A stretch of 64,000 nt of DNA, from positions 51,522,001 through 51,586,000 of the forward strand of contig OZ024744.1 of NCBI GenBank assembly GCA_964016885.1. Direction: 5' to 3'. The stretch's first letter is position 1. Every line of letters starts with the position of its first letter. Shown here one piece after another: positions 144-64,000 of this stretch. The position numbers were made by a program, and so were the translations under genes. The notes under the pieces are model-generated. The model saw nothing but the letters and a program-made list of their open reading frames with translations. It made no database searches and had not been told where the DNA came from. This DNA comes from Eledone cirrhosa. Its lineage: Eukaryota.

Positions 144-145
<2 letters not shown>

Positions 146-405
146 TTTCTTTATTAACCACAAGGGTTTACATAAAGTAGACATTAAGGACAGTGCAGGA
201 CAATGCAGGACGGTACAAATGGGCATTTCTGCGTGTAAAAAAACAAAAACAGAAGATGTAACAAAAATAACAATGAAAATAACAATGAAAAATTCCCCAA
301 TAGGGGGGAGACTTCGGAGGGACATTTGTGGAGAAAGCCCAGTAAAAAGCCACAATGACCCTGACCACCAAGGCAAGTGCCCTCTCCCAGTTTTCCACCT
401 TTAGT

Positions 406-3400
406 TTACAGATATATACTCAGAGTCGGCCCATTCACTCGGGCCATTCTTGCTTCTCTCACCCATCTTTCAACAAAATGCTGGGAAGAGAGCACTTCCC
501 TCTCTACTCTGATTTTCCTTTTCAAATGAAATTTGAAAAAGTCAATCAGAGCATCACCGAAGAGGTAAGTGCTCGTCTTCAGCCCTTTCAAACGTGTCCA
601 CCATACTATCTCTTTCGCCATGGCCACCAGACAGATAAAAACTGCCTGCCCTTCCCGGCTAAAGGAGGAGGGCGGGGCAATCCTCACGATGGACTCAGAT
701 GATAGCTGGATCCGTCCTAAACGCGACAGCAGGTGTTCGACATAAACCCACAAGTCAGCAATTTTCGGACACTGGACGAGTGCGTGCAGGACGGTTTCGT
801 CGCCCTGCGCGCATCTCGGACATGCCCGGCTGACGGCACCTCCATGCCTGTAGAGTTTATCCCGAACTGGCAAGGCTCCTCGGTAGCACTGCCAGGCCAG
901 AGATTTCTGGAAGTTGTCCATAGGCCCTGGCCCGAAAGTTCTTCCGAAGAGATTGGCTAGTTGATTTTCGTCGACGCCTAGAGTTTCCCCAAGTACGTCG
1001 TCGCTCTTCCCCTCCACTAATCCTCTATAGAACGCCGAGGTGGAGTTTCCACCGATCACATTGCCCGATTGGTCGAGGGCTGTGAGCGCCTGAAGACATT
1101 CCAGTCTCCAGGCGCTCCCTCTCGGTCTTCGCTTGACCCAGGACTGCAGCTCCGTCAAGGAAACGAGCTGGGGAAAAACGCGTCTAGCAAACGGCGACCA
1201 CACCTGATCACCGTCGAGGAAGAGGTGGAGATGTCGTAGCCTGAGCGCGTGCCTGCGCATCATCAGCCACGGCATGCCCAGCCCTCCACGTAGCGGGTGT
1301 TGACAACAGATGGACCGCCTGACCATCGGAGCACGTCCCTTCCACAAAAAGCGAAAGAGCAAACGCTCCAGCGCAGTCAGGCGAGGCTTAGGACAAGGTA
1401 CGACGGTTAGGCGGTAGCAGATGACAGACGCGATGTACGCGTTAGCCACCTCCGCTCGACCTTTCAGGGATAGCTTCCTCTCCGCCCATTTCTGGGTGAG
1501 AGAAGCCACCCTGCTCGTCACCTCGTCCCAGTTTTTGTCCGTCTGGAGGTCCGGACCGAACCAGACCCCTAGCAATTTAACCGGTCCGTCCGTCCAGCGC
1601 CCGACGACGCTGTTGGACGGCATGGACCTGCCTCTCCAGGTGCCGAGCTGCAGGCCCACTGACTTTTCCTGGTTGATCATTGCTCCTGTCACCGCTTCGT
1701 ATTCTCTTAGTGTAGTGCCGATCGCCTCGATGTGTTTGGCGTTCGACACCACTACGGTGACATCGTCCGCATATGCTGACACGGATCTTCCGCATCCTAG
1801 TTCGCGCGGGACTCCCCTCAACGTCTCCAGTTTGTGCAGTAATGGCTCGAGAGTCAATACGTACAAGAGGGACGAGAGGGGACATCCTTGGCGGACCGAG
1901 CGCATGATGTTGAACGGTTCCGACAGGTGACCGTTCACTCTCACCACAGAGCAGATGTCGCTGTGCATGGCAGCGATCCAGCCTCTGAAGACGGGCCCAA
2001 AGCCAGCCGCCCTCAGGACTGCCGCTAGGTAACGATGGTCGACCCTATCGAAAGCTTTCGACTGATCTAAATTGATCAAGGACCCACCCGTGCCAGGTTC
2101 CCTAGCTACCCTCTCTACGATGTATCGCATGAGGTGGAGGTTGTCGTGGATGGATCTGTCGGGAATGGCGCATGTCTGCGCCTCTCCCACCAGACCACCA
2201 ACGACAAGCGCCAACCTCTTTGCTAGCACCTTGGCCAAAATCTTAAACTCTGTGTTTAGCAGAGTTATGGGCCGGAAATTGTCTATGTTATCCCCCTTGT
2301 TCGGATCCTTTCTCAGCAGTGCCACCGCTCCTCGGCTCACAGAACTGGGAATTCTCCCGTTCTGTTGCCAGTTGCAGTAGACGTCCGCCAAGAGGCCTCC
2401 GAACAAGTCTGGCATCTGTACGTAAAGTTCATAGGGCAGACCATCCAAACCAGGCGATTTACCCCTTGTGCAGCCAGTCATTGCCTCCCGTACTTCAGCG
2501 GCTGTTATCGGCTTTTCGCAACACCTCGCCTCAGTGGCCGAGAGCCGCGGCAGCCCGTCGAGGTAGACACTAAAGTCCATCCCTCTACCCGGCCCCCCGC
2601 TGCCCCCGAACAGCTGAGCGAAGTGTCGCTGAAAAGTTTCACACATTTGCCCGGGATCGAGTAGCATGCGCCCGTCGTGGTCCACCAAAGACCGGATCGT
2701 GGCTTTGTTGCCACGACGCGCCTCCGCCACTCGGGCCCATTGAACGGCTTTCGTCCCCTCGTGTCTGAGAGCACGCACCCTAGCTCTGACAACGCAGCCT
2801 TCGTGCTTTGCATTGAAGAATTGGTCAAGGGCCAATTTCGCCGCAAGCACGTCGGTCGCAATGCCTTTGCTAAGCGCCTCGTCTAATTTTCTAACTAGTT
2901 CTCCCTCTGCTCTATTTTTCTCTATTGCTAAAGCCTTACTAAACCTAATCGATTCTATTCTAATCGCTCTTTTCAGAGCAAACCACCACTTGTTGTTGAC
3001 GATGGCCCCCGTCAACGCCCGCTTAACTAGTTCGCTAATCCGGTCTCTGTAGGCCTTGCGCGCTGGTAAGGACGCGTTTAGCTTCCAGTAGCCGGGTCCT
3101 CGTCTATGAAGCCTATCTAAGTCAAGCACACAGATCACGAATTTGTGGTCCGTGTAGCTGACTATCTTGAATTGTGGACAGCCTATGCTAGACCTATCTA
3201 TTTCCCTACAAAATACTCTATCTAGATATGATCTGGATGACCCTATGCGGTTTGTCCAAGTCCACATTGGCACATTCGGGAAATCCAATCGGTACCTGTC
3301 AGACAGTTCAAAACGCCTGAGCAGGTTGGTGAGGCTCTTGCACCCTCCACCCCTATCCGCTAATCCCACACAGTCCCAGCGTGCATCTAAGATCCCGTTC

Positions 3401-3825
3401 CAGTCGCCCACTAACACTAAAGAGCGGGACGTTCCAAGAAAGGTCTCCAGACGCCGGAAGAAATCAGGCCGCCCTGCTCCTGTCGGGGCATAGACGGCCA
3501 CTAGCCTGAAAGCTTGCCCGTCTCCGCTGGTCACGTCCAGCACCACCAGCTTACCCTCTGGGTCCAGGAAGATGGCCCGTATGGCGAGATCCAAACCTCT
3601 CCGAAAAAGTACAGCAACTCCTCCACCGGATCCAGGACGGCTGGGAGATGCGTACACATCGTAGCCGCCGAAGATCGGTGCGAAGGCCCGTGCTTCGGAG
3701 ATTCTGGTCTCGCTGATGGCCACTACATCTATGTTTAGTGACCTGAGGTCGTTGAGCAGGTGACCCTGCTTCCATGACGACCCCAAGCCACGCGCATTTA
3801 TGCTGCCTATTCTGAGTGAGGTCAT
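406..3825 (-). CDS. ORF2: APE-like endonuclease + reverse transcriptase + C-terminal zinc-binding domain (1139 aa)
   Basis: Endonuclease motifs SINARGL, SETR, GDWN, SYLD, TDH; RT motifs KSPGLDG, FRPITLLN, DQSKAFDRV, RQGCPLS, YADD; C-terminal CPRC..ETVLHALVQC. Confidence 0.96.
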   Translation of the reverse strand: MTSLRIGSINARGLGSSWKQGHLLNDLRSLNIDVVAISETRISEARAFAPIFGGYDVYASPSRPGSGGGVAVLFRRGLDLAIRAIFLDPEGKLVVLDVTSGDGQAFRLVAVYAPTGAGRPDFFRRLETFLGTSRSLVLVGDWNGILDARWDCVGLADRGGGCKSLTNLLRRFELSDRYRLDFPNVPMWTWTNRIGSSRSYLDRVFCREIDRSSIGCPQFKIVSYTDHKFVICVLDLDRLHRRGPGYWKLNASLPARKAYRDRISELVKRALTGAIVNNKWWFALKRAIRIESIRFSKALAIEKNRAEGELVRKLDEALSKGIATDVLAAKLALDQFFNAKHEGCVVRARVRALRHEGTKAVQWARVAEARRGNKATIRSLVDHDGRMLLDPGQMCETFQRHFAQLFGGSGGPGRGMDFSVYLDGLPRLSATEARCCEKPITAAEVREAMTGCTRGKSPGLDGLPYELYVQMPDLFGGLLADVYCNWQQNGRIPSSVSRGAVALLRKDPNKGDNIDNFRPITLLNTEFKILAKVLAKRLALVVGGLVGEAQTCAIPDRSIHDNLHLMRYIVERVAREPGTGGSLINLDQSKAFDRVDHRYLAAVLRAAGFGPVFRGWIAAMHSDICSVVRVNGHLSEPFNIMRSVRQGCPLSSLLYVLTLEPLLHKLETLRGVPRELGCGRSVSAYADDVTVVVSNAKHIEAIGTTLREYEAVTGAMINQEKSVGLQLGTWRGRSMPSNSVVGRWTDGPVKLLGVWFGPDLQTDKNWDEVTSRVASLTQKWAERKLSLKGRAEVANAYIASVICYRLTVVPCPKPRLTALERLLFRFLWKGRAPMVRRSICCQHPLRGGLGMPWLMMRRHALRLRHLHLFLDGDQVWSPFARRVFPQLVSLTELQSWVKRRPRGSAWRLECLQALTALDQSGNVIGGNSTSAFYRGLVEGKSDDVLGETLGVDENQLANLFGRTFGPGPMDNFQKSLAWQCYRGALPVRDKLYRHGGAVSRACPRCAQGDETVLHALVQCPKIADLWVYVEHLLSRLGRIQLSSESIVRIAPPSSFSREGQAVFICLVAMAKEIVWWTRLKGLKTSTYLFGDALIDFFKFHLKRKIRVEREVLSSQHFVERWVREARMARVNGPTLSIYL

Positions 3826-3860
3826 GTTTAAAATAGAGTGGAAAAGATGGGAAAGACCAC

Positions 3861-5957
3861 TTACCGTATTTTTGGTAGAGGAGGGATGGTTTTTACATCC
3901 CTTTTCACTTGATCGTCTGGTGAAGGGACCGTTGAATCTTCCCTTCGGCTGGTCGTCGGCTCTTCTAAGAGAATGTCTGAATATACTCTTCGATTAATGG
4001 TTCCTCCTAGGTCCCTGAAATCACCAACTGCGTTGGGAAATTTCGTTTTAATGTTTGTGTATTGTTTCTGTGCTATTTTTAGCAGTCTTATGTTAGTTGG
4101 CGTTTTGATTGGTGCTGGTATTATGTAGTCCTGTTGTGAAATGTCTGTGTGTTCAATTATGTAAGTCATTAGTTTCTTGTTGTGTGTGTTTATTGCCGTG
4201 CATTTGTTTTTCTGGGGGTGGGGTGTGGTTCTGCTATTTTCTTGTCGTTGTTGCTGGGTGTGTGTGTTTTGTTGTTGTGTTTGCGATGTTGGTGCTTGTG
4301 GTGGTGGTGTTGAAGGTGTTGTTGGCGGTGGGGTTGTCGCCGGTGGTGATGGTGGTGCTGGTGTGGGTGGTGATGGTGTTGGTGGTGTTGCTGCTGTGGG
4401 TCTCTTTGCAGTAGACTTTACCCTTTTCTCATTTCTTTCCTCCCTTTTCAAAGGCGACGATGCGCTGCTTCTGCGTTTGTGCCTTCTTGAGACCTTTTGC
4501 CATCCCTCTCCCACCTCACACTCCATGTCTGATTCTGTAAGGTCGGGGAGGGGTACCAGCTCCACTCTTTCACTTGTTGTTGTTGGTGATGTTTGCACTG
4601 GAGTCTCTGTTGCAGCTGCATTTGGTATTGCTGTTGTTGTTGTTAATATTTCCACTGCTGCTGCTGTCTTTGATTTCCGTGGAGTGGGTATGGGTGCCAC
4701 GGACCTATCGTTCCTGGTTGCCGCTTGTCCTGTTGCTGGTAGCCGTGGAACCGGATTCGGGAGGAGGGGGGTTTTCTCCTTTCTCAGGGTCTTCTCGTTG
4801 CAGAAGGCCCTGAGGTGAGTCTTCGATCCACAGCGAAAGCATTTCGGGCGTTTGCCCTCAACACTTATGGGCAGTTGAGTGCCGTTATCGAAGTCTATCA
4901 CATCCGGGATAGCTTCGATGCACTCCTGGTTGGTTTGGATTAGCATCTCAATGGAGGAGCCGACCCAATCTTCTCTTACTTTTTTCTGTACTTGCAGTAC
5001 AGTTGTTTTGTCCTCGATTCCGACGAGGACAGACGCGGCCAGCCAAGAAGGGGTCATTCCGGGGGGGACGTGGGTCAGTTTGACCCTCACAATTTTTTGC
5101 CCGCAGTAGGAGGGCACCAACACCATTTCCTCGCTCCTTAGGGTCACTACTGATTGGGCCTTTGCCTCCTGGGGTGTGGCAAAAAGTACGTCTACGGTGG
5201 CATATTTTTTGCCTCGGGTGATGTGCGTTTTCCGCTGCCACACAGACCCCAAGGCTTTTTGTATTTGGGCCTCTGTGGCTCTTTCCACCCTACGGGATTT
5301 TGTACTTACTGTACGGTACGTGACCGTACAGTGCTCTTGGGTTTCGAAAAAATTTTTCGCTGCCTTGCAGATTGCTCGGTGTCCGTTCTTTGTCACCATC
5401 TTCTTCGCTTCCTCTAATTCCTCATTTGTTATGAGGATTGTTTCCAAATTTTTCGCAATACCTGCAAATGAGATTGGTTTTTCTCTGCTGTTGTTGTTGT
5501 CGTCAGAGCTGCTGGTACTTTTGTTGTTGCTGCAGGTACTACGACTACTGCCTCCGCCGCTGTTGCTGTGGTTGTTGTTGGTGTTGCTGCTGCTAATGCT
5601 GTTGTTGTTTATGCTGCTGGTGATGCTGTTGCGGCTGCTACTGTTGTTTTCATTGTCACTGTTGCTGTTGTTATTACGGCTGCTACTGCTATTATTCCTG
5701 ACGTCAGACGAATGAACTGGGTTTTCGTATTTCCCGCACACCTGTTTCGTCGCTGTCGTCGTCGTCGTGGAGAAACCTTGCACGCTTTGCACGAGACTTT
5801 TCTTTTCTTTCGTCGCTTGCGAAAGAGAAGGGAGGGAGAGAGACACATTTAAAGAAGGGAGGGAGAGAGACAATCTTCTCTCTGCTGTAGTGATGATTGA
5901 GGAAGAAGAAGACGGAATGAGTGGGAGTGACGTATGAAATTTCTTTTTGGTAGCCAT
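3861..5957 (-). CDS. ORF1: gag-like nucleic-acid-binding protein with CCHC zinc knuckle
   Basis: CFRCGSKTHLRAFC (CX2CX4HX4C); lies upstream of ORF2; first ATG at 5957 (the track start at 5990 is TTG); N/S-rich and P/T-rich low-complexity tracts. Confidence 0.9.
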   Translation of the reverse strand: MATKKKFHTSLPLIPSSSSSIITTAERRLSLSLPSLNVSLSLPSLSQATKEKKSLVQSVQGFSTTTTTATKQVCGKYENPVHSSDVRNNSSSSRNNNSNSDNENNSSSRNSITSSINNNSISSSNTNNNHSNSGGGSSRSTCSNNKSTSSSDDNNNSREKPISFAGIAKNLETILITNEELEEAKKMVTKNGHRAICKAAKNFFETQEHCTVTYRTVSTKSRRVERATEAQIQKALGSVWQRKTHITRGKKYATVDVLFATPQEAKAQSVVTLRSEEMVLVPSYCGQKIVRVKLTHVPPGMTPSWLAASVLVGIEDKTTVLQVQKKVREDWVGSSIEMLIQTNQECIEAIPDVIDFDNGTQLPISVEGKRPKCFRCGSKTHLRAFCNEKTLRKEKTPLLPNPVPRLPATGQAATRNDRSVAPIPTPRKSKTAAAVEILTTTTAIPNAAATETPVQTSPTTTSERVELVPLPDLTESDMECEVGEGWQKVSRRHKRRSSASSPLKREERNEKRVKSTAKRPTAATPPTPSPPTPAPPSPPATTPPPTTPSTPPPQAPTSQTQQQNTHTQQQRQENSRTTPHPQKNKCTAINTHNKKLMTYIIEHTDISQQDYIIPAPIKTPTNIRLLKIAQKQYTNIKTKFPNAVGDFRDLGGTINRRVYSDILLEEPTTSRREDSTVPSPDDQVKRDVKTIPPLPKIR

Positions 5958-6004
5958 GTTTTTTTGTTTAAAATGAAATTTTGGGTACAAAACCCCAATA
6001 ACTG

Positions 6005-6032
6005 GTTATTTAACCCCGAAGGGCCAAATAAC
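6005..6032 (-). promoter_or_regulatory. 12-bp stem with cUUCGg tetraloop in the Tx1 5' UTR (also at 16873-16900)
   Basis: Sense-strand sequence GTTATTTGGCCC-TTCG-GGGTTAAATAAC. Confidence 0.55.
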
Positions 6033-6197
6033 GGACAGAAAGACCCCTCTCACGAGGAGGAGGGTGTCTTTATCAACAATTTGGTTCAAGTTTTAAACAA
6101 TTTACAATTGTTTTAACGGTTAAAAATTACTATACCTTACAGAGCCGAGCCTCCGTCAACCATGGCATTCAATAATAATAATAATAATAATAATAAT

Positions 6198-9100
6198 GAT
6201 TTCATTTATTAGCCACAAGGGCCGATATGTAGAGGACAATACAAAGACAGGGACAGTGGGGGTTTACAATAAGGTTGAGTAAAAGTGCACAATGGCAAGA
6301 CTAATTTAACAATGAAAATATAAAAATATAAAATAAACTATGCATAAATATAACAAAATAAATTCCCCGATAGGGGGTGGACGATCCTGGAGTGATTCGG
6401 GTACCCCACCAATCCTGAACCACCCTGCGCTTCTAGGGCACCCAGGGAGAGCACAACTATCCTCAAGTTAGCCAGCCTATAGGCGCATGGTCAGAGTAGG
6501 CCCATTCACACGAGCCATTCTCGCCACATTCACCCACCTTTTAGCAAATGCACTGGGGGGGGGGGGGCACTTCTCTCTCCACCCTCACCTTCCTTTCCAG
6601 GTGAAACTTGAAGAAGTTGATGAGGGATTGGCCGAAGAGAAAAGTGTCTGTCTTTAGTCCTTTCAACCTGGTCCACCATATAATCTCTTTCGCAACTGCC
6701 ACCAGACAGAGGAAAATTTCCTGCTCTTCCTGCCCTAAGGAAGGCGGTGGATCGATCTTCACTATGGACTCGGCCGATAGCCGGATTCGTTCTACACGCG
6801 ACAGTAGCTGTTCGACATAACTCCACAAGTCAGTAATGCACGGACATTGGACAAGTGCGTGCAGAACGGTTTCGTCGTTCTGTGCGCATCTTGGGCAGGT
6901 CCGTCTGACAGCACTTCCGTGCCTGTAGAGTTTATCCCGAACCGGCAGTGCCCCCCGGTAGCACTGCCAAGCGAGGGATTTCTGGAAATTGTCCATCGTC
7001 CCCGGCTCAAAAGTCCTCCGGTACAGACTGGTCAGTTCGACTTCGTCGAGGCCCAAAGCTTCTCCGAGTGCGTCATCGCACTTGCCTACCACTAATCCTC
7101 TATAGAACTCGCGAGTGGAAGTTCCACTGATCGCATTGCCCGCTTGGTAGAGGGCAGAGAGTGCCTGGCAACATTCCAGGTGCCAGTCACCCAGTCTCGG
7201 TCTCTTCTTGACCCAGGACTGCAGCTCAGTTCAAGAAATGAGCTGCGAAAAGGCCCGTCTGATAAACGGCGACCACACCTGTTCACCGTTGAGGCAGAAT
7301 ATCTGGAGATGTCGCAGCCTCAACGCATGTCTGCGCATCATTAGCCACGGCATGCCCAGCCCTCCGCGTAGAGGGTGCTGGCAGCAGATGGACCGCCTCA
7401 CCAACGGAACTTGTCCCCTCCACAAGAATTTGAAGAGGAGCCGTTCCAGCTTGACGAGGCGCGGATGGGGGCAAGGCACGACGGTTAGGCGGTAGTAGAT
7501 GACGGACGCGATATACGCATTCGCCACCTCCGCGCGACCTTTCAGTGATAGCTTCCTCCCAGCCCATTTTTGGGTGAAACTGGCTACTCTGCTCGTTACC
7601 TCGTCCCAATACTTTTCCACCTGGAGGTCTGGTCCGAACCAAACCCCGAGCAACTTTACCGGTCCGTCCGTCCAGCGCCCCACGACGCTGTTGTACGGCA
7701 TGGGCTTGCCTCTCCAGGTTCCGAGCTGCAAGCCCACCGACTTTTTCGGGTTAAGTTTGGCTCCTGTCAACCTTTCATATTCCTTCAATAAGGTGCTTAC
7801 CACCTCGATTTCTGAGGTGTTCGACACCATCACGGTGATGTCGTCCGCATAAGCCGACACCGCCCTTCCACGTCCCGGTTCGAGCGGGATGCCCTGCAAC
7901 AGCTCCAGCTTCTGCAGTAAAGACTCGAGTGTCAATACGTACAGAAGGGAAGAGAGAGGGCACCCTTGACGGACCGATCGGGAGAGCCGAAATGGTTCTG
8001 AGAGGTGGCCATTAACCTTAACCACCGAACATGTGTCGCTGTGCATTGCAACGATCCAGCTTCTAAAGACAGGGCCGAAGCCAGCTGCTTTGAGGACAAA
8101 CTCCAGATACCGATGCTCGACCCTATCGAATACTTTCGATTGATCTAAATTGATCAGAGCCCCACCGAAGCCAGGTTTACACCCTACCCTCTCTATGATG
8201 TATCGCATGAGGTGGAGATTGTCGTGTATGGACCTGGCTGGGATTGCGCAAGTTTGCGCCTCCCCAACCAAATCCTCGACGACAAGCGCCAATCTCTTTG
8301 TTAACACCTTGGCCAAAATCTTAAACTCTGTGTTGAGCAGAGTTATGGGCCTGAAGTTGTCTAATGTATCCCTCTTGTTCTCGTCTTTCCTTCTGCTCAC
8401 AGAACTGGGAATACTCCCATTCTGCCAGGTGACTTGCGCCTCATGCAGCCGACAAGGGCGTCCTGAATTTCGGCTGAAGTAATCGGCCTTTCGCAGCGCT
8501 CAGCGTCGACCGTCGAGATGCGCTGCAAGCCGTCAAGGTAGGGACTGAAATCCGCTACTCTCTCTGACTCGCCACTCTCTCTGAACAACCGAGCAAAGTG
8601 CTGGCGAAAGGTCTCACACATCCGCTTGGAATCGCTTATCTCGTGTCCGTCTCGGTCCGCCAAAGACCGAATTGTGGTTTTATTACCACGCTGCGCCTCC
8701 ACCACGCGGGCCCATCGAACAGCTTTAGTTCCCTCGTTTCTCAGCGCACGCGCCTTAGCTCTGACAATGCAACCTTCGTGTTTGGCATTGAAGAAATGGT
8801 CTAATGCCATTCTCGCCGCTAGCACGTCAGTTGCGATGCCACTACAAATAGCCTCGTCTAACTTATCTACCAGCTCCCCCCTCCTTTCTATTTTTTCTCT
8901 AACGCTAGTTCTTTGCTGAACTCTATCGAAATTACTCTAATCTCTCTTGTGAGAGCCACCCACCATCTGTTGTTGATGATCCCCACTGTCAACTTTTTCT
9001 TAACTAAATTGTTGACTCGGTCTCTGTAAGCCTTACATGCCGGAAATGACATGTTCAGCTTCGAGTAACCCGGTCTTAACCTACGCGTTTTATTTAGGTC

Positions 9101-9574
9101 GACCGTACAGATCACAAATTTGTGATCTGAATAGGCGACCGTTTTAAAAAGTGCACAGCCCACACTATTTCTATCTATTTTCCTAATGAAGATCCTGTCT
9201 TTATACGATCTAGATGACCCCATTCGGTTGGTCCATGTCCATACTGGCACATTGGGGAAATCTAGTCGATAGCTGTCAGACAGTTGGAACTGGCTGAGTA
9301 GGTGCTTGAGGCTTTTGCACCCCCCGCTCCTATCGGCTACTCCCACACAATCCCAGCGTGCGTCTAAGATGCCATTCCAGTCCCCCGCTAACAGTAAAGG
9401 GCGAGACGTACCCAGAAAGGTCTCCAGGCGCCTAAAGAAGTCAGGTCGTCCGGCCCCTGTAGGGGCGTAGACGGCCAGCAGTCTAAAGGCACCACCTTCG
9501 CTACTGCTCACATCCAAGACCACCAACTTACCGTTCGGGTCCCGGAAGATCGACCTTACCTCGAGATCCAGTCC
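6198..9574 (-). pseudogene. 5'-truncated, frameshifted Tx1 element (family B, copy 1)
   Basis: ORF pieces 8888-9526, 8397-8825, 7231-8400 and 6541-7092 are collinear with family A ORF2 (GDWN, FRPITLLN, YADD, CPRC); internal deletion near 8430; (AAT)n on both sides. Confidence 0.93.
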
Positions 9575-9602
9575 TAATAATGATAATAATAATAATAATA
9601 AT

Positions 9603-9784
9603 TGTTTCTACTTTAGGCATAAGGCCAGCAATTACCCAGTGCATTACTGGTACTTTATTTTATCGACTCCGTAAGTATGAAAGGCAAAGTCAACCTCGGC
9701 GGGATTTGAACTCAGATCGTAAAGGGACGTAACTATGCTGGAAAGCATGGCGTCCGACGCTCTACCGATACTGCCAATCCACCG
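9603..9784 (-). mobile_element. tRNA-derived SINE with ATT tail
   Basis: Minus-strand A box TGGCAGTATCGG, B box GAGTTCAAATCC, core GCCTTTCAT..GTCGATAAAATAAAGTACCAGT, tail AGAAACA(ATT)n; more than 10 copies in the window. Confidence 0.9.
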
Positions 9785-9793
9785 TAATAATAA

Positions 9794-10819
9794 TAACAAG
9801 AGGAGTGATATCGATAGACTCTACTTAAAGAGATCTGAAGGTGGAAGAGGTCTTATCAGCATAGAGGACTGTGTTCAGATGGAGAAAAACAACCTACACA
9901 AATACGTGAATTGTACTGAAGGAGAGGACAATAGACCAGGGGATGTCCAAGGAGGAAATAATAAGGAGAAAGAGCAGCCTTCATGAAAAATCCCTTCATA
10001 GTGCCTTCTTTGAGAAAACTGAATTTAGAGATCCACAGACATGGAACTGGTTGAAAAGAGGAGACCTTAAAAAGACTATAGAAGGAATGCTAATGGCTGC
10101 GCAAGAGCAGGCCCTCAAAACGAAGTGGCTGAAACACCATATTTACAAGGAGGAGGCTAGCCCATTGTGCAAGATCTGTGGAGAGAGAGAGAGGAGACTG
10201 TGGCTCACATTGTATCCGAGTGTAAACACCTAGCCCAGACTGACTATAAGGGCTGGAGACATGATGTTATGGGCAGGGTGATCCACTGGCACCTATGCAA
10301 AGTAAACAATTTACCACATTCTGAGAAGTGGTATGAGCATAAGCCAGAGTCGGTGATAGAAAACGATCAGGTGAAGGTGCTGTGGGATTTTAGGATACAG
10401 ACGGACAAGAAACTGGAACACAATAGACCTGACCTGGTGGTTTTGGACAAAGAAAAAAGATCGTGCCTGATTGTGGATGTGGCCTGCCCATTCGATACGA
10501 GAGTGCAAGAGAAGGAGAGGGAGAAAATTAACCGATACCAGGACTTAAAGTGAGAGGTAAAAAGGATTTGGAACTGCCATGAAGTCAAAGTGGTCCCGAT
10601 TGTCATAGGCGCACTAGGGACTATCTCAAAAAAGTTTCCAGGGATGGTTAAAGAAAATTGGCCCCTTCACGCTTTTTGGAACGCTTCAAAAGGCATGCTT
10701 GCTGGGAACAGCAAGAACCCTCCGATACGTCCTGAATATCTGAGGCTGCAGGTAGTGGCTTGATATTCATTTCAACAAATTTTCCAGTTAACTAACATCA
10801 ATGACTGGGACTCAAAGAG
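9794..10819 (+). pseudogene. 3' part of an R4/Dong-like RLE non-LTR retrotransposon (copy 1), disrupted
   Basis: DRLYLKRSEGGRGL, AAQEQAL, CKIC..ETVAHIVSEC zinc finger, RHD, LWDF, RPDLVV..D..KE.EK (PD-D/ExK nuclease), VPIVIGALG; (TAA)n tail; TGA at 10551 and frameshifts. Confidence 0.88.
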
Positions 10820-10971
10820 TAATAACAATAATAATAATAATAATAACATTGCAACGCTTCGCTACTCCTCTTCTCCATCATCACGACATTCTTCGTCAAT
10901 ATTTGACGATGCCTTGCAGAAATTCCACCAACAAATTGATATCGTCATTCATTCAGCGCAAGTCTTCTTTC

Positions 10972-11013
<42 letters not shown>

Positions 11014-11273
11014 TTTCTTTATTAACCACAAGGGTTTACATAAAGTAGACATTAAGGACAGTGCAGGACAATGCAGGACGGTACAAATGGGCATTTCTGC
11101 GTGTAAAAAAACAAAAACAGAGGATGTAACAAAAATAACAATGAAAATAACAATGAAAAATTCCCCAATAGGGGGGAGACTTCGGAGGGACATTTGTGGA
11201 GAAAGCCCAGTAAAAAGCCACAATGACCCTGACCACCAAGGCAAGTGCCCTCTCCCAGTTTTCCACCTTTACT

Positions 11274-14200
11274 TTACAGATATATACTCAGAGTCGGCCC
11301 ATTCACTCGGGCCATTCTTGCTTCTCTCACCCATCTTTCAACAAAATGCTGGGAAGAGAGCACTTCCTTCTCTACTCTGATTTTCCTTTTCAAATGAAAT
11401 TTGAAAAAGTCAATCAGAGCATCACCGAAGAGGTAAGTGCTCGTCTTCAGCCCTTTCAAACGTGTCCACCATACTATCTCTTTCGCCATGGCCACCAGAC
11501 AGATAAAAACTGCCTGCCCTTCCCGGCTAAAGGAGGAGGGCGGGGCAATCCTCACGATAGACTCAGATGATAGCTGGATCCGTCCTAAACGCGACAGCAG
11601 GTGTTCGACATAAACCCACAAGTCAGCAATTTTCGGACACTGGACGAGTGCGTGCAGGACGGTTTCGTCGCCCTGCGCGCATCTCGGACATGCCCGGCTG
11701 ACGGCACCTCCATGCCTGTAGAGTTTATCCCGAACTGGCAAGGCTCCTCGGTAGCACTGCCAGGCCAGAGATTTCTGGAAGTTGTCCATAGGCCCTGGCC
11801 CGAAAGTTCTTCCGAAGAGATTGGCTAGTTGATTTTCGTCGACGCCTAGAGTTTCCCCAAGTACGTCGTCGCTCTTCCCCTCCACTAATCCTCTATAGAA
11901 CGCCGAGGTGGAGTTTCCACCGATCACATTGCCCGATTGGTCGAGGGCTGTGAGCGCCTGAAGACATTCCAGTCTCCAGGCGCTCCCTCTCGGTCTTCGC
12001 TTGACCCAGGACTGCAGCTCCGTCAAGGAAACGAGCTGGGGAAAAACGCGTCTAGCAAACGGCGACCACACCTGATCACCGTCGAGGAAGAGGTGGAGAT
12101 GTCGTAGCCTGAGCGCGTGCCTGCGCATCATCAGCCACGGCATGCCCAGCCCTCCACGTAGCGGGTGTTGACAACAGATGGACCGCCTGACCATCGGAGC
12201 ACGTCCCTTCCACAAAAAGCGAAAGAGCAAACGCTCCAGCGCAGTCAGGCGAGGCTTAGGACAAGGTACGACGGTTAGGCGGTAGCAGATGACAGACGCG
12301 ATGTACGCGTTAGCCACCTCCGCTCGACCTTTCAGGGATAGCTTCCTCTCCGCCCATTTCTGGGTGAGAGAAGCCACCCTGCTCGTCACCTCGTCCCAGT
12401 TTTTGTCCGTCTGGAGGTCCGGACCGAACCAGACCCCTAGCAATTTAACCGGTCCGTCCGTCCAGCGCCCGACGACGCTGTTGGACGGCATGGACCTGCC
12501 TCTCCAGGTGCCGAGCTGCAGGCCCACTGACTTTTCCTGGTTGATCATTGCTCCTGTCACCGCTTCGTATTCTCTTAGTGTAGTGCCGATCGCCTCGATG
12601 TGTTTGGCGTTCGACACCACTACGGTGACATCGTCCGCATATGCTGACACGGATCTTCCGCATCCTAGTTCGCGCGGGACTCCCCTCAACGTCTCCAGTT
12701 TGTGCAGTAATGGCTCGAGAGTCAATACGTACAAGAGGGACGAGAGGGGACATCCTTGGCGGACCGAGCGCATGATGTTGAACGGTTCCGACAGGTGACC
12801 GTTCACTCTCACCACAGAGCAGATGTCGCTGTGCATGGCAGCGATCCAGCCTCTGAAGACGGGCCCAAAGCCAGCCGCCCTCAGGACTGCCGCTAGGTAA
12901 CGATGGTCGACCCTATCGAAAGCTTTCGACTGATCTAAATTGATCAAGGACCCACCCGTGCCAGGTTCCCTAGCTACCCTCTCTACGATGTATCGCATGA
13001 GGTGGAGGTTGTCGTGGATGGATCTGTCGGGAATGGCGCATGTCTGCGCCTCTCCCACCAGACCACCAACGACAAGCGCCAACCTCTTTGCTAGCACCTT
13101 GGCCAAAATCTTAAACTCTGTGTTTAGCAGAGTTATGGGCCGGAAATTGTCTATGTTATCCCCCTTGTTCGGATCCTTTCTCAGCAGTGCCACCGCTCCT
13201 CGGCTCACAGAACTGGGAATTCTCCCGTTCTGTTGCCAGTTGCAGTAGACGTCCGCCAAGAGGCCTCCGAACAAGTCTGGCATCTGTACGTAAAGTTCAT
13301 AGGGCAGACCATCCAAACCAGGCGATTTACCCCTTGTGCAGCCAGTCATTGCCTCCCGTACTTCAGCGGCTGTTATCGGCTTTTCGCAACACTTCGCCTC
13401 AGTGGCCGAGAGCCGCGGCCGTCCGTCGAGGTAGACACTAAAGTCCATCCCTCTACCCGGCCCCCCGCTGCCCCCGAACAGCTGAGTGAAGTGTCGCTGA
13501 AAAGCTTCACACATTTGCCCGGGATCGAGTAGCATGCGCCCGTCGTGGTCCACCAAAGACCGGATCGTGGCTTTGTTGCCACGACGCGCCTCCGCCACTC
13601 GGGCCCATTGAACGGCTTTCGTCCCCTCGTGTCTGAGAGCACGCACCCTAGCTCTGACAACGCAGCCTTCGTGCTTTGCATTGAAGAATTGGTCAAGGGC
13701 CAATTTCGCCGCAAGCACGTCGGTCGCAATGCCTTTGCTAAGCGCCTCGTCTAATTTTCTAACTAGTTCTCCCTCTGCTCTATTTTTCTCTATTGCTAAA
13801 GCCTTACTAAACCTAATCGATTCTATTCTAATCGCTCTTTTCAGAGCAAACCACCACTTGTTGTTGACGATGGCCCCCGTCAACGCCCGCTTAACTAGTT
13901 CGCTAATCCGGTCTCTGTAGGCCTTGCGCGCTGGTAAGGACGCGTTTAGCTTCCAGTAGCCGGGTCCTCGTCTATGAAGCCTATCTAAGTCAAGCACACA
14001 GGTCACGAATTTGTGGTCCGTGTAGCTGACTATCTTGAATTGTGGACAGCCTATGCTAGACCTATCTATTTCCCTACAAAATACTCTATCTAGATATGAT
14101 CTGGATGACCCTATGCGGTTTGTCCAAGTCCACATTGGCACATTCGGGAAATCCAATCGGTACCTGTCAGACAGTTCAAAACGCCTGAGCAGGTTGGTGA

Positions 14201-14693
14201 GGCTCTTGCACCCTCCACCCCTATCCGCTAATCCCACACAGTCCCAGCGTGCATCTAAGATCCCGTTCCAGTCGCCCACTAACACTAAAGAGCGGGACGT
14301 TCCAAGAAAGGTCTCCAGACGCCGGAAGAAATCAGGCCGCCCTGCTCCTGTCGGGGCATAGACGGCCACTAGCCTGAAAGCTTGCCCGTCTCCGCTGGTC
14401 ACGTCCAGCACCACCAGCTTACCCTCTGGGTCCAGGAAGATGGCCCGTATGGCGAGATCCAAACCTCTCCGAAAAAGCACAGCAACTCCTCCACCCGATC
14501 CAGGACGGCTGGGAGATGCGTACACATCGTAGCCGCCGAAGATCGGTGCGAAGGCCCGTGCTTCGGAGATTCTGGTCTCGCTGATGGCCACTACATCTAT
14601 GTTTAGTGACCTGAGGTCGTTGAGCAGGTGACCCTGCTTCCATGACGACCCCAAGCCACGCGCATTTATGCTGCCTATTCTGAGTGAGGTCAT
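11274..14693 (-). CDS. ORF2 APE-RT of Tx1 copy 2 (1139 aa)
   Basis: Intact ORF with the same motifs as copy 1 and a few amino-acid differences. Confidence 0.96.
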   Translation of the reverse strand: MTSLRIGSINARGLGSSWKQGHLLNDLRSLNIDVVAISETRISEARAFAPIFGGYDVYASPSRPGSGGGVAVLFRRGLDLAIRAIFLDPEGKLVVLDVTSGDGQAFRLVAVYAPTGAGRPDFFRRLETFLGTSRSLVLVGDWNGILDARWDCVGLADRGGGCKSLTNLLRRFELSDRYRLDFPNVPMWTWTNRIGSSRSYLDRVFCREIDRSSIGCPQFKIVSYTDHKFVTCVLDLDRLHRRGPGYWKLNASLPARKAYRDRISELVKRALTGAIVNNKWWFALKRAIRIESIRFSKALAIEKNRAEGELVRKLDEALSKGIATDVLAAKLALDQFFNAKHEGCVVRARVRALRHEGTKAVQWARVAEARRGNKATIRSLVDHDGRMLLDPGQMCEAFQRHFTQLFGGSGGPGRGMDFSVYLDGRPRLSATEAKCCEKPITAAEVREAMTGCTRGKSPGLDGLPYELYVQMPDLFGGLLADVYCNWQQNGRIPSSVSRGAVALLRKDPNKGDNIDNFRPITLLNTEFKILAKVLAKRLALVVGGLVGEAQTCAIPDRSIHDNLHLMRYIVERVAREPGTGGSLINLDQSKAFDRVDHRYLAAVLRAAGFGPVFRGWIAAMHSDICSVVRVNGHLSEPFNIMRSVRQGCPLSSLLYVLTLEPLLHKLETLRGVPRELGCGRSVSAYADDVTVVVSNAKHIEAIGTTLREYEAVTGAMINQEKSVGLQLGTWRGRSMPSNSVVGRWTDGPVKLLGVWFGPDLQTDKNWDEVTSRVASLTQKWAERKLSLKGRAEVANAYIASVICYRLTVVPCPKPRLTALERLLFRFLWKGRAPMVRRSICCQHPLRGGLGMPWLMMRRHALRLRHLHLFLDGDQVWSPFARRVFPQLVSLTELQSWVKRRPRGSAWRLECLQALTALDQSGNVIGGNSTSAFYRGLVEGKSDDVLGETLGVDENQLANLFGRTFGPGPMDNFQKSLAWQCYRGALPVRDKLYRHGGAVSRACPRCAQGDETVLHALVQCPKIADLWVYVEHLLSRLGRIQLSSESIVRIAPPSSFSREGQAVFICLVAMAKEIVWWTRLKGLKTSTYLFGDALIDFFKFHLKRKIRVEKEVLSSQHFVERWVREARMARVNGPTLSIYL

Positions 14694-14728
14694 GTTTAAA
14701 ATAGAGTGGAAAAGATGGGAAAGACCAC

Positions 14729-16825
14729 TTACCGTACTTTTGGTAGAGGAGGGATGGTTTTTACATCCCTTTTCACTTGATCGTCTGGTGAAGGGACCGT
14801 TGAATCGTCCCTTCGGCTGGTCGTCGGCTCTTCTAAGAGAATGTCTGAATATACTCTTCGATTAATGGTTCCTCCTAGGTCCCTGAAATCACCAACTGCG
14901 TTGGGGAATTTCGTTTTAATGTTTGTGTATTGTTTCTGTGCTATTTTTAGCAGTCTTATGTTAGTTGGCGTTTTGATTGGTGCTGGTATTATGTAGTCCT
15001 GTTGTGAAATGTCTGTGTGTTCAATTATGTAAGTCATTAGTTTCTTGTTGTGTGTGTTTATTGCCGTGCATTTGTTTTTCTGGGAGTGGGGTGTGGTTCT
15101 GCTATTTTCTTGTCGTTGTTGCTGGGTGTGTGTGTTTTGTTGTTGTGTTTGCGATGTTGGTGCTTGTGGTGGTGGTGTTGAAGGTGTTGTTGGCGGTGGG
15201 GTTGTCGCCGGTGGTGATGGTGGTGCTGGTGTGGGTGGTGATGGTGTTGGTGGTGTTGCTGCTGTGGGTCTCTTTGCAGTAGACTTTACCCTTTTCTCAT
15301 TTCTTTCCTCACTTTTCAAAGGCGACGATGCGCTGCTTCTGCGTTTGTGCCTTCTTGCGACCTTTTGCCATCTCTCTCCCACCTCACACTCCATGTCTGA
15401 TTCTGTGAGGTCGGGGAGGGGTACCAGCTCCACTCTTTCACTTGTTGTTGTTGGTGATGTTTGCACTGGAGTCTCTGTTGCAGCTGCATTTGGTATTGCT
15501 GTTGTTGTTGTTAGTATTTCCACTGCTGCTGCTGTTTTTGATTTCCGTGGAGTGGGTATGGGTGCCACGGGCCTATCGTTCCTGGTTGCCGCTTGTCCTG
15601 TTGCTGGTAGCCGTGGAGCCGGATTCGGAAGGAGGGGGGTTTTCTCCTTTCTCAGGGTCTTCTCGTTGCAGAAGGCCCTGAGGTGAGTCTTCGATCCACA
15701 GCGAAAGCATTTCGGGCGTTTGCCCTCAACACTTATGGGCAGTTGAGTGCCGTTATCGAAGTCTATCACATCCGGGATAGCTTCGATGCACTCCTGGTTG
15801 GTTTGGATTAGCATCTCAATGGAGGAGCCGACCCAATCTTCTCTTACTTTTTTCTGTACTTGCAGTACAGTTGTTTTGTCCTCGATTCCGACGAGGACAG
15901 ACGCGGCCAGCCAAGAAGGGGTCATTCCGGGGGGGACGTGGGTCAGTTTGACCCTCACAATTTTTTGCCCGCAGTAGGAGGGCACCAACACCATTTCCTC
16001 GCTCCTTAGGGTCACTACTGATTGGGCCTTTGCCTCCTGGGGTGTGGCAAAAAGTACGTCTACGGTGGCATATTTTTTGCCTCGGGTGATGTGCGTTTTC
16101 CGCTGCCACACAGACCCCAAGGCTTTTTGTATTTGGGCCTCTGTGGCTCTTTCCACCCTACGGGATTTTGTACTTACTGTACGGTACGTGACCGTACAGT
16201 GCTCTTGGGTTTCGAAAAAATTTTTCGCTGCCTTGCAGATTGCTCGGTGTCCGTTCTTTGTCACCATCTTCTTCGCTTCCTCTAATTCCTCATTTGTTAT
16301 GAGGATTGTTTCCAAATTTTTCGCAATACCTGCAAATGAGATTGGTTTTTCTCTGCTGTTGTTGTTGTCGTCAGAGCTGCTGGTACTTTTGTTGTTGCTG
16401 CAGGTACTACGACTACTGCCTCCGCCGCTGTTGCTGTGGTTGTTGTTGGTGTTGCTGCTGCTAATGCTGTTGTTGTTTATGCTGCTGGTGATGCTGTTGC
16501 GGCTGCTACTGTTGTTTTCATTGTCACTGTTGCTGTTGTTATTACGGCTGCTACTGCTATTATTCCTGACGTCAGACGAATGAACTGGGTTTTCGTATTT
16601 CCCGCACACCTGTTTCGTCGCTGTCGTCGTCGTCGTGGAGAAACCTTGCACGCTTTGCACGAGACTTTTCTTTTCTTTCGTCGCTTGCGAAAGAGAAGGG
16701 AGGGAGAGAGACACATTTAAAGAAGGGAGGGAGAGAGACAATCTTCTCTCTGCTGTAGTGATGATTGAGGAAGAAGAAGACGGAATGAGTGGGAGTGACG
16801 TATGAAATTTCTTTTTGGTAGCCAT
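14729..16825 (-). CDS. ORF1 (CCHC zinc knuckle) of Tx1 copy 2
   Basis: Intact ORF containing CFRCGSKTHLRAFC. Confidence 0.9.
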   Translation of the reverse strand: MATKKKFHTSLPLIPSSSSSIITTAERRLSLSLPSLNVSLSLPSLSQATKEKKSLVQSVQGFSTTTTTATKQVCGKYENPVHSSDVRNNSSSSRNNNSNSDNENNSSSRNSITSSINNNSISSSNTNNNHSNSGGGSSRSTCSNNKSTSSSDDNNNSREKPISFAGIAKNLETILITNEELEEAKKMVTKNGHRAICKAAKNFFETQEHCTVTYRTVSTKSRRVERATEAQIQKALGSVWQRKTHITRGKKYATVDVLFATPQEAKAQSVVTLRSEEMVLVPSYCGQKIVRVKLTHVPPGMTPSWLAASVLVGIEDKTTVLQVQKKVREDWVGSSIEMLIQTNQECIEAIPDVIDFDNGTQLPISVEGKRPKCFRCGSKTHLRAFCNEKTLRKEKTPLLPNPAPRLPATGQAATRNDRPVAPIPTPRKSKTAAAVEILTTTTAIPNAAATETPVQTSPTTTSERVELVPLPDLTESDMECEVGERWQKVARRHKRRSSASSPLKSEERNEKRVKSTAKRPTAATPPTPSPPTPAPPSPPATTPPPTTPSTPPPQAPTSQTQQQNTHTQQQRQENSRTTPHSQKNKCTAINTHNKKLMTYIIEHTDISQQDYIIPAPIKTPTNIRLLKIAQKQYTNIKTKFPNAVGDFRDLGGTINRRVYSDILLEEPTTSRRDDSTVPSPDDQVKRDVKTIPPLPKVR

Positions 16826-17065
16826 GTTTTTTTGTTTAAAATGAAATTTTGGGTACAAAACCCCAATAACTGGTTATTTAACCCCGAAGGGCCAAATAAC
16901 GGACAGAAAGACCCCTCTCACGAGGAGGAGGGTGTCTTTATCAACAATTTGGTTCAAGTTTTAAACAATTTACAATTGTTTTAACGGTTAAAAATTACTA
17001 TACCTTACAGAGCCGAGCCTCCGTCAACCATGGCATTCAATAATAATAATAATAATAATAATAAT

Positions 17066-20470: not shown

Positions 20471-20652
20471 TGTTTCTACTTTAGGCATAAGGCCAGCAAT
20501 TACCCAGTGCATTACTGGTACTTTATTTTATCGACTCCGTAAGTATGAAAGGCAAAGTCAACCTCGGCGGGATTTGAACTCAGATCGTAAAGGGACGTAA
20601 CTATGCTGGAAAGCATGGCGTCCGACGCTCTACCGATACTGCCAATCCACCG
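20471..20652 (-). mobile_element. tRNA-derived SINE, duplicated copy
   Basis: Matches 9603-9784. Confidence 0.9.
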
Positions 20653-21915: not shown

Positions 21916-21966
21916 TGTTTCTACTTTAGGCACAAGGCCAGCAATTACCCAGTGCATTACTGGTAA
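21841..21966 (-). mobile_element. Long (AAT)n tract plus SINE 3' tail fragment
   Basis: TGTTTCTACTTTAGGCACAAGGCCAGC follows about 25 AAT units. Confidence 0.8.
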
Positions 21967-63390: not shown

Positions 63391-64000
63391 TGTAGTGTGG
63401 TGTAGTGTAGTGTGGGGTAGTGTGGTGTGGTGTGGTGTGCTGTAGTGTAGTGTAGTGTAGTGTGGTGTGGTGTAGTGTGGTGTGGTGTGGTGTAGCGTGG
63501 TGTAGTGTAGTGTGGTGTGGTGTGGTGTGTTGTAGTGTGCTCTGGTGTGCTGTAGTGTGGTGTGGTGTGGTGTGCTGTAGTGTGGTGTGGTGAGGTGTGG
63601 TGTAGTGTGGTGAAGTGTGGTGTGGTGTACTGTAGTGTGGTGTAGTGTAGTGTGGTGTGGTGTGGTGTGGTGTGGTGTAGTGTGGTGCAGTGTGGTGTAG
63701 TGTAGTGTAGTGTGGTGTGGTGTAGTGTGGTGTGCTGTAGTGTGGTGTAGTGTGGTGTAGTGTGGTGTGGTGTAGTGTGGTGTAGTGTGGTGTAGTGTAG
63801 TGTGGTGTACTGTGGTGTAGTGTAGTGTGGTGTAGTGTGGTGCAGTGTGGTGTAGTGTAGTGTAGTGTGGTGTGGTGTAGTGTGGTGTGCTGTAGTGTGG
63901 TGTAGTGTGGTGTAGTGTGGTGTGGTGTGTTGTAGTGTGCTCTGGTGTGCTGTAGTGTGGTGTAGTGTAGTGTAGTGTAGTGTAGTGTAGTGTGGTGTGG
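63391..64000. repeat. (GTGTG/GTGTA)n pentanucleotide array, running off the window
   Basis: Directly visible. Confidence 0.95.

Follow-up and report, generated by a model that had tools for sequence, protein, structure and literature searches.

A high-copy SINE of the octopod Eledone cirrhosa and a group of LINEs of the Tx1 clade have the same predicted hairpin at their 3' ends and leave the same footprint in the target DNA; therefore, this Tx1 group likely supplies the enzyme that copies the SINE. We think it quite probable that Tx1 is the mobiliser of the SINE, and probable as well that (ATT)-targeting Tx1 elements do the copying through their ORF2 protein, for which recognition of this small hairpin is predicted. 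The original prediction, made from a stretch of 64,000 nucleotides of contig OZ024744.1 (positions 51,522,001 to 51,586,000, from here on the window), had named Tx1 as the partner, and this is supported by the terminal register in comparison with ten other LINE ends, by a covarying hairpin and by matching target-site duplications.

The elements and their common 3' end

The SINE family is 184 nt long, non-coding and present in high copy number, with 5' truncations and target-site duplications. A/B box-like motifs were recognised by eye in its head, and ARAGORN and Rfam searches gave 0 matches each; there is no internal run of four T, which is compatible with the predicted Pol III transcription, no more. 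Its body may resemble the Meta domain of MetaSINEs, a 66-bp domain placed behind the head. Two subtypes of copies are distinguished, with identities of 93.8% and 97.2% to the majority sequence of the respective subtype, and young copies exist for both the SINE and Tx1. Head-to-tail SINE runs with one duplicated spacer in common are frequent (seven loci), as expected from read-through or reinsertion into the SINE's own ends. At three loci a probable second SINE is fused, at a recurring position, to the last ~210-260 nt of the RTE 3' end, with (GAT)n as its terminus; it is likely a conventional RTE-partnered SINE.

The LINE is assigned to the Tx1 clade, within the L1 group, by its anatomy and its targeting. 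The ORF2 of the Tx1-A family contains the Pfam domains PF03372, PF00078 and PF13966, its nearest solved structure is human L1 ORF2p (E 6e-53, versus 1e-21 for R2), and its nearest named relative is an Argonauta hians protein with 66% identity, while the 'Transposon TX1' titles of more distant matches are annotations only. A CCHC knuckle in ORF1 is a criterion of the Tx1 clade. This knuckle is visible in the translation of ORF1, for which the atlas matches are zf-CCHC and ZCCHC3-type proteins at 0.90-0.93; a Pfam search of ORF1 found no CCHC-type family. The copies are inserted in (ATT)n or (ATCT)n arrays, that is, with a target-sequence preference. In a tree of the Tx1 families of this genome and six unclassified relatives, one clade targets (ATCT)n (100/98) and two clades target (ATT)n (100/98 and 97/98); one member, L108, is tagged ATT there by a crude tail test, and its actual end is of the ATCT type. 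The monophyletic (ATCT)n-targeting group, seen in the window and at ten further loci, has the same hairpin with a more variable loop.

Features of the window (positions in nucleotides from its first letter)
Feature	Position	Strand	Remarks
Nearly complete tRNA-type SINE copy of the ~184-nt family	9603..9784	-	duplicate at 20471-20652
SINE terminal mini-hairpin, 3-bp stem, 5-nt loop	9616..9626	-	one loop substitution in this copy
(ATT)n array after the SINE	9576..9602	-	contains the 5' junction of the truncated Tx1-B
Tx1-B, 5'-truncated within the endonuclease, ORF2 fragmented	6198..9575	-	hairpin end, then (ATT)9 at 6171-6197
Tx1-A, full-length copy of 6,027 bp with ORF1 and ORF2 open	144..6170	-	second copy at 11012-17038
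Tx1-A ORF2 frame: APE endonuclease, reverse transcriptase, C-terminal zinc finger	406..3993	-	
Tx1-A ORF1 frame, CCHC knuckle; resembles zf-CCHC, ZCCHC3-type RNA-binding proteins	3861..6005	-	
Tx1-A 3' end: 4-bp stem, 5-nt loop, poly(A)-signal hexamer	144..168	-	then (ATT)20 at 84-143
Dong/R4-type LINE fragment, (TAA)n end	9798..10820	+	3' end unlike that of the SINE
SINE 3' stub, exact tail	21916..21965	-	
SINE copy, exact tail	38845..39025	-	query for the genome search
3' end of another (ATT)-group Tx1 family, hairpin retained	23649..23673	-	
3' end of another (ATT)-group Tx1 family, hairpin retained	29619..29643	-	
5'-truncated Tx1 of the (ATCT)-targeting group	39278..41105	+	same hairpin, other target repeat

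Several of these elements form a nest, in which, on the minus strand, Tx1-A lies within the (ATT)n behind Tx1-B and Tx1-B within the (ATT)n behind the SINE, which is adjoined in opposite orientation by the Dong/R4 fragment. The whole Tx1-A/Tx1-B/SINE/Dong nest is contained in each unit of a 10,868-bp tandem duplication at 104-21,882 with 99.8% identity, which is either a recent duplication or an assembly artefact. Positions 53495-64000 of the window consist of long G/T-rich satellites of extreme strand skew, with units of 9/21/63 nt, a 54-nt unit repeated 37 times and a 35-nt unit.

Elsewhere in the genome, Tx1-A forms head-to-tail arrays with a period of ~6.05 kb. All the full-length Tx1-A 5' ends seen (12 matches) have (ATT)n upstream, even without a duplication (L330); examples are window positions 6171-6197 and six further loci, and this 5' (ATT)n may be carried along with the Tx1-A RNA. 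Of five long Tx1-A copies whose 5' junctions were sought, two proved to be full length, the one in a tandem and the other lacking a duplication, and the remaining three gave no information. The ends of (ATT)-group Tx1 often adjoin oppositely oriented Dong elements at their (TAA)n end (loci L031-L060); Tx1 and Dong LINEs supply each other's target arrays.

The terminal motif proposed for SINE and Tx1, CCTTGTG-N8-AGAAA(C/T)-N-(ATT)n, is confirmed, with 17 matches in the window at no more than one mismatch against 0.17 expected from shuffles, a number reached in 0/100 shuffles of the window. The common end is genuine but short. SINE ends with the exact motif are found at 21917 and 38846, and the first of them, claimed as exact, is indeed so, but the copy is merely a ~50-nt 3' stub. 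Variants occur at 25917, 31042, 32746, 35039 and 48687. The SINE end listed at 9603 does have one mismatch (at 9604), but it forms, together with 20472, a single insertion copied by the tandem duplication. Tx1 ends with the motif are at 145, 11013, 22729, 23650 and 29620, with more altered ones at 6200, 26107 and ~41085. The alignment of SINE and Tx1 ends had been described as gap-free, which is true of Tx1-A, 23650 and 29620, but one additional base is needed for 6200 and 41083. It had also been claimed that the motif persists in divergent Tx1 families; the element at 41083, a member of the second Tx1 group, does retain it, but its tail is (ATCT)n instead of (ATT)n. Nor is (ATT)n mostly a tail of the element itself, as had been supposed: it is largely target DNA, because the duplication starts at the first base after the element.

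Genome-wide, 130,481 exact matches to the 29-nt SINE tail and 4,957 to the end of the (ATT)-group Tx1 were counted (reversed controls 0 in both cases). It is plausible that this SINE is the dominant one of the genome, the 130,481 exact tails being a count of this family only. Random stretches totalling 1.4 Mb contained 212 SINE-type tails, 151 with the usual SINE sequence upstream and 61 atypical; 53 of the latter match the SINE body and 8 match none of the collected elements, and a collected LINE end lay upstream of 0/61 in this sample.

The terminal hairpin

The N8 of the motif is a spacer only in part. Its first three bases pair with those immediately upstream, closing a 5-nt loop, so that it contains the 3' arm of a 3-bp stem. 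RNAalifold predicted this stem unprompted on 13 ends of the window. At the middle position of the stem the SINE has G-C where Tx1 has C-G, and the outer position varies between G-C, A-U and G-U from one Tx1 family to another. Pairing held in 37/39 and 45/45 cells of two sets, compared with at most 58% in slid controls; the corresponding shuffle counts (0/500 and 2/500) are not probabilities, because the rows of the alignment are related, and the covariation amounts to about two independent events, double-sided substitutions that distinguish the SINE from Tx1 and Tx1 families from one another. Single-strand folding energies were no better than those of shuffles (z -1.46 to +0.65), and one SINE subtype takes a different fold at minimum energy. 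The loop is identical in the SINE and the main (ATT)-group Tx1, differs in the worn end at 26107 and varies in the (ATCT) group. In Tx1 the stem is followed by a poly(A)-signal hexamer, which the SINE does not have. Nearly all the intact Tx1 ends recovered show the same terminal arrangement, a few older copies being worn or interrupted, and the Tx1-type stem is intact in 145-147 of 150 SINE hits (20 of 170, with gaps, were excluded).

Tx1 could also move the SINE loosely, by reading only the AUU-rich end, and then the hairpin would be an inherited relic. Our confidence in copying by Tx1 already includes this reading, which we regard as rather unlikely. The hairpin is certainly tiny and thermodynamically undistinctive, its loop bases differ among the (ATCT)-group families, and part of the conserved end of Tx1 is the poly(A) signal. 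However, the stem is kept across Tx1 families that have 55-75% amino-acid identity and otherwise diverged UTRs, and it is kept in both SINE classes as well (139/151 and 46/61, numbers with an upward bias from the selection columns). That the hairpin is required for copying the SINE, as the word 'stringent' implies, is in our opinion an evenly balanced proposition. A metagenome scan with one relative gave no match. A scan with a second relative gave 34 loci; at seven of these, where the ORF2 match was 27-47% identical to the query, the sequence downstream of this match was examined, and the hairpin end was present in 0/7. A poly(A) end was seen at one of the seven, and the sequence of one was truncated.

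Rival LINE ends and the insertion footprint

The last 22 nt of the SINE were compared with 16 LINE ends, six of Tx1 and ten others, obtained from the 1.4 Mb of random stretches (0.05% of the 3.0-Gb genome) and from targeted loci. The six Tx1 ends agree at 12-16 positions (p 0.0005-0.04), with 14-15/22 for the (ATT) group (p <= 0.001, anchored) and 12-16/22 for the (ATCT) group, versus 5-11/22 for the ten ends of CR1, RTE, Dong and RNase H LINEs (p 0.05-0.92). Thus, the alignment with other clades that had been suggested as a check gave no terminal match better than Tx1 among the ten sampled. The common stretch has ~22 nt at ~68%, shorter than in published SINE/LINE pairs, and unanchored local alignments are weak (p 0.012-0.30). 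The terminal sequences of RTE, two further CR1 types and Dong-TAA do not match that of the SINE, and these were rejected as partners. The RNase H LINE was rejected too: it lacks a 3' UTR, ends in (AAC)n and has a mismatched terminal sequence; it is low-copy, with 29 RNase H matches genome-wide, eight of which were fetched. Penelope and Hero-like elements are also present in the genome, outside the scored set of 16 ends.

A rare or extinct LINE outside the sample might instead be the true partner, the likeness to Tx1 being then due to convergence or an old common origin. Random sampling covered 1.4 Mb of 3.0 Gb, plus the targeted loci, the genome searches score top candidates only, and other SINE/LINE pairs are reported to have 50-100 nt in common (PMC3747384 and PMC3472496, in their accessible parts). 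We consider this improbable all the same: the 99 RT segments of the sample were all assigned to RTE, Tx1, CR1 or Dong queries (22 of them at <45% identity), and a SINE of which >130,000 exact ends and young copies exist must depend on a helper that is abundant and was active recently.

The insertion footprint was read by an anchored test, in which an exact repeat of at least 10 nt, not purely periodic, is sought between the 5' flank and the bases directly past the element, with mismatched pairs as control; it replaced a first, looser test of high control rate (126/752). The SINE gave anchored duplications in 60/153 copies (control 5/3004), with a median of 15 bp, and 52 of the 60 begin with ATTAT, mostly following T or C. 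Since duplications are unreadable in long arrays, the usual sites of Tx1-ATT, 60 Tx1 loci were chosen from 352 genome matches with short ATT runs; 24 had no 5' junction and 36 were scored. Outside arrays, 8/36 Tx1 copies had anchored duplications (control 7/699), of 13-18 bp with a median of 14 bp, and all eight start with ATTAT, preceded by C or T. In a broader Tx1-ATT set, which overlaps with this one, the count was 4/48, and in the (ATCT) group 1/16. The medians of 15 and 14 bp fit the mode published for L1-clade LINEs, 13-15 bp, rather than the 10-12 bp of RTE (PMC6007223, accessible part). Moreover, a Tx1 stub (L240) and a SINE cluster (L075) have a common insertion point in another repeat, with 35/40 flank identity.

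The same test bears on the (ATT)-tailed CR1 family and on RTE elements, which might move the SINE by pairing with its AUU end. CR1a does end in (ATT)n, with 4,515 exact ends genome-wide, no other RT of the sample is as frequent as RTE, and a SINE subtype with GTTAT flanks hints at a site choice guided by the tail. Nevertheless, this reading is disfavoured and has in our view quite a small chance of being correct: terminal similarity to the SINE is absent (6-9/22), RTE ends in (GAT)n, and anchored duplications were found in 0/41 CR1a copies, although their own end is (ATT)n, and in 0/27 RTE copies, zeros that may be undercounts because LINE junctions are less certain than SINE junctions. Dong-TAA likewise gave 0/16, and the pooled Dong/R4 count was 1/58, as expected by chance. 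Least probable of all, and very improbable, is that a (CATA)n-targeting Dong/R4 family (31 loci) is both source and reader of the SINE tail. Its 3' UTR does contain a look-alike of that tail (16/20), whose local score of 20 (p 0.029, uncorrected) equals or exceeds those of most Tx1 ends, and one SINE subtype is able to take a Dong-like fold. However, the look-alike stops 50 nt short of the Dong terminus inside a different long stem of that UTR, the Dong copies lie in (CATA)n arrays and their duplications do not exceed chance (1/42, control 15/821), and the commonest SINE subtype was amplified despite breaking the Dong-type middle pair (48/150 paired). An ancestral contribution of Dong/R4 sequence to the SINE tail is possible.

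For the SINE and Tx1, the proposed comparison of targets, duplication lengths and ages turned out well for the first two, which agree; the length of the arrays differs, however, and the ages are uninformative, as the age profiles of all LINE clades overlap and do not separate the candidate helpers. An ATT repeat of at least 7 nt follows 4,750 of 5,102 exact Tx1 ends, and the ATT run after the element has a median of 18.5 nt in Tx1 (20 copies) versus 6 nt in the SINE (153 copies). The SINE flank starts with GTTAT in 10/206 copies, enriched in one subtype (8/10 versus 63/191, p 0.004 uncorrected); nine loci of this kind were noted, and in four scored SINE duplications the upstream copy likewise begins with G. 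This suggests that the RNA end takes part in the choice of site by the SINE, which would explain the difference in array length between Tx1 and SINE; if the RNA tail does pick the site, the ATTAT start is less telling about which endonuclease made the cut.

Proposed copying and comparison with known systems

Copying of the SINE by Tx1 may proceed as follows. Pol III would transcribe the SINE from its tRNA-like head, and the Tx1-ATT ORF2 protein would bind the terminal stem-loop of the RNA, by analogy with L2 elements (PMC4176376, accessible part). Its endonuclease would nick the strand opposite an ATTAT site, a few AUU bases at the RNA end would anneal to the strand thus released, which would prime reverse transcription, and a staggered second nick would give a duplication of ~14 bp (~10-20 bp are observed). 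The SINE would have retained the hairpin and its spacing to the end, though not the poly(A)-signal hexamer, for which a Pol III RNA would have no use. The Tx1 RNAs are proposed to have longer AUU runs and therefore to insert in long arrays, while the short end of the SINE would accept short sites. We put forward more tentatively, at a little less than even confidence, that an animal L1-group element reads its RNA through a minimal 3-bp stem-loop, not poly(A), and that a SINE which copied nothing but this hairpin has become over twenty times as numerous as its helper of ~5,000 copies and at the same time escaped the confinement of the helper to long microsatellites.

If true, such an animal Tx1 pair, whose structured tail is minimal, would mean stringent recognition inside the animal L1 group, in a Tx1/SINE pair with intact young ORFs, and it would allow testing whether the poly(A) recognition of human L1 is a relaxed form of an ancestral stem-loop recognition. 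The two sister Tx1 groups, with one hairpin and different targets, would moreover allow RNA recognition to be told apart from DNA targeting.

Literature on octopod repeats gives a context for this pair. SINEs make up ~12% of the Octopus vulgaris assembly, where the recently active families are nearly all unclassified, and 13 recently active L1-Tx1 families are described, with no partner LINE named in the accessible part of that source (PMC13282606). CR1 and L2 partners are given for other mollusc SINEs (PMC4758252 and PMC4824008, in part), and the accessible text of PMC9115989 discusses RTE and Dong and never mentions Tx1. Our literature search, mostly of non-subscription papers, and without the 1994 octopus SINE paper or the Repbase notes, revealed neither a Tx1/SINE pair with a shared tail nor a partner LINE named for octopod SINEs. 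In the MetaSINE superfamily the tRNA head is followed directly by the central body and the partner LINEs are stated to be unknown; the accessible part of that report mentions no octopod member or Tx1 partner (PMC4824008).

The idea that a SINE partner is unexpected for the L1 group has to be tempered, because Tx1-mobilised SINEs (PMC4494074) and tail-sharing L1-clade pairs (PMC3472496) have been published, as the accessible parts of both state. In crocodilians, SINEU was likewise assigned to a Tx1 element, Tx1-Mar, by common targets and overlapping ages (PMC4494074); SINEU has snRNA heads and poly(A) tails, with no common 3' sequence reported in the accessible text, whereas here the head is tRNA-like, poly(A) is absent and the common 3' end is structured. 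The Tx1 elements Kibi and Koshi and certain Tx1 elements of crocodilians also insert in microsatellites, with (TC)n, (TTC)n, (TTCC)n and (TTTC)n as targets according to the accessible part of the same source, versus (ATT)n and (ATCT)n here. The L1 clade appears in only 3 of 58 catalogued tail-sharing pairs, those described being from maize and a green alga (PMC3472496, in part). ZmSINE2/3 with LINE1-1_ZM in maize and SINEX-3 with L1-1_CR in Chlamydomonas likewise have an L1-group/SINE 3' hairpin with compensatory changes, but they have 50-80 nt in common, end in poly(A) and do not involve Tx1, in contrast to the animal pair proposed here, with ~22 nt and microsatellite targeting (PMC3472496 and PMC3747384, accessible parts). 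UnaL2/UnaSINE1 and ZfL2-1/ZfL2-2 also have a terminal stem-loop followed by short repeats, in which the stem varies and the loop is more conserved; these belong to the L2 clade, have a longer stem and, as the accessible part of PMC4176376 states, a requirement shown experimentally, whereas our hairpin is a prediction from sequence. Thus, Tx1-mobilised SINEs and stringent L1 pairs were already known, and what appears new here with respect to published systems is a probable Tx1/SINE pair with a common structured tail.
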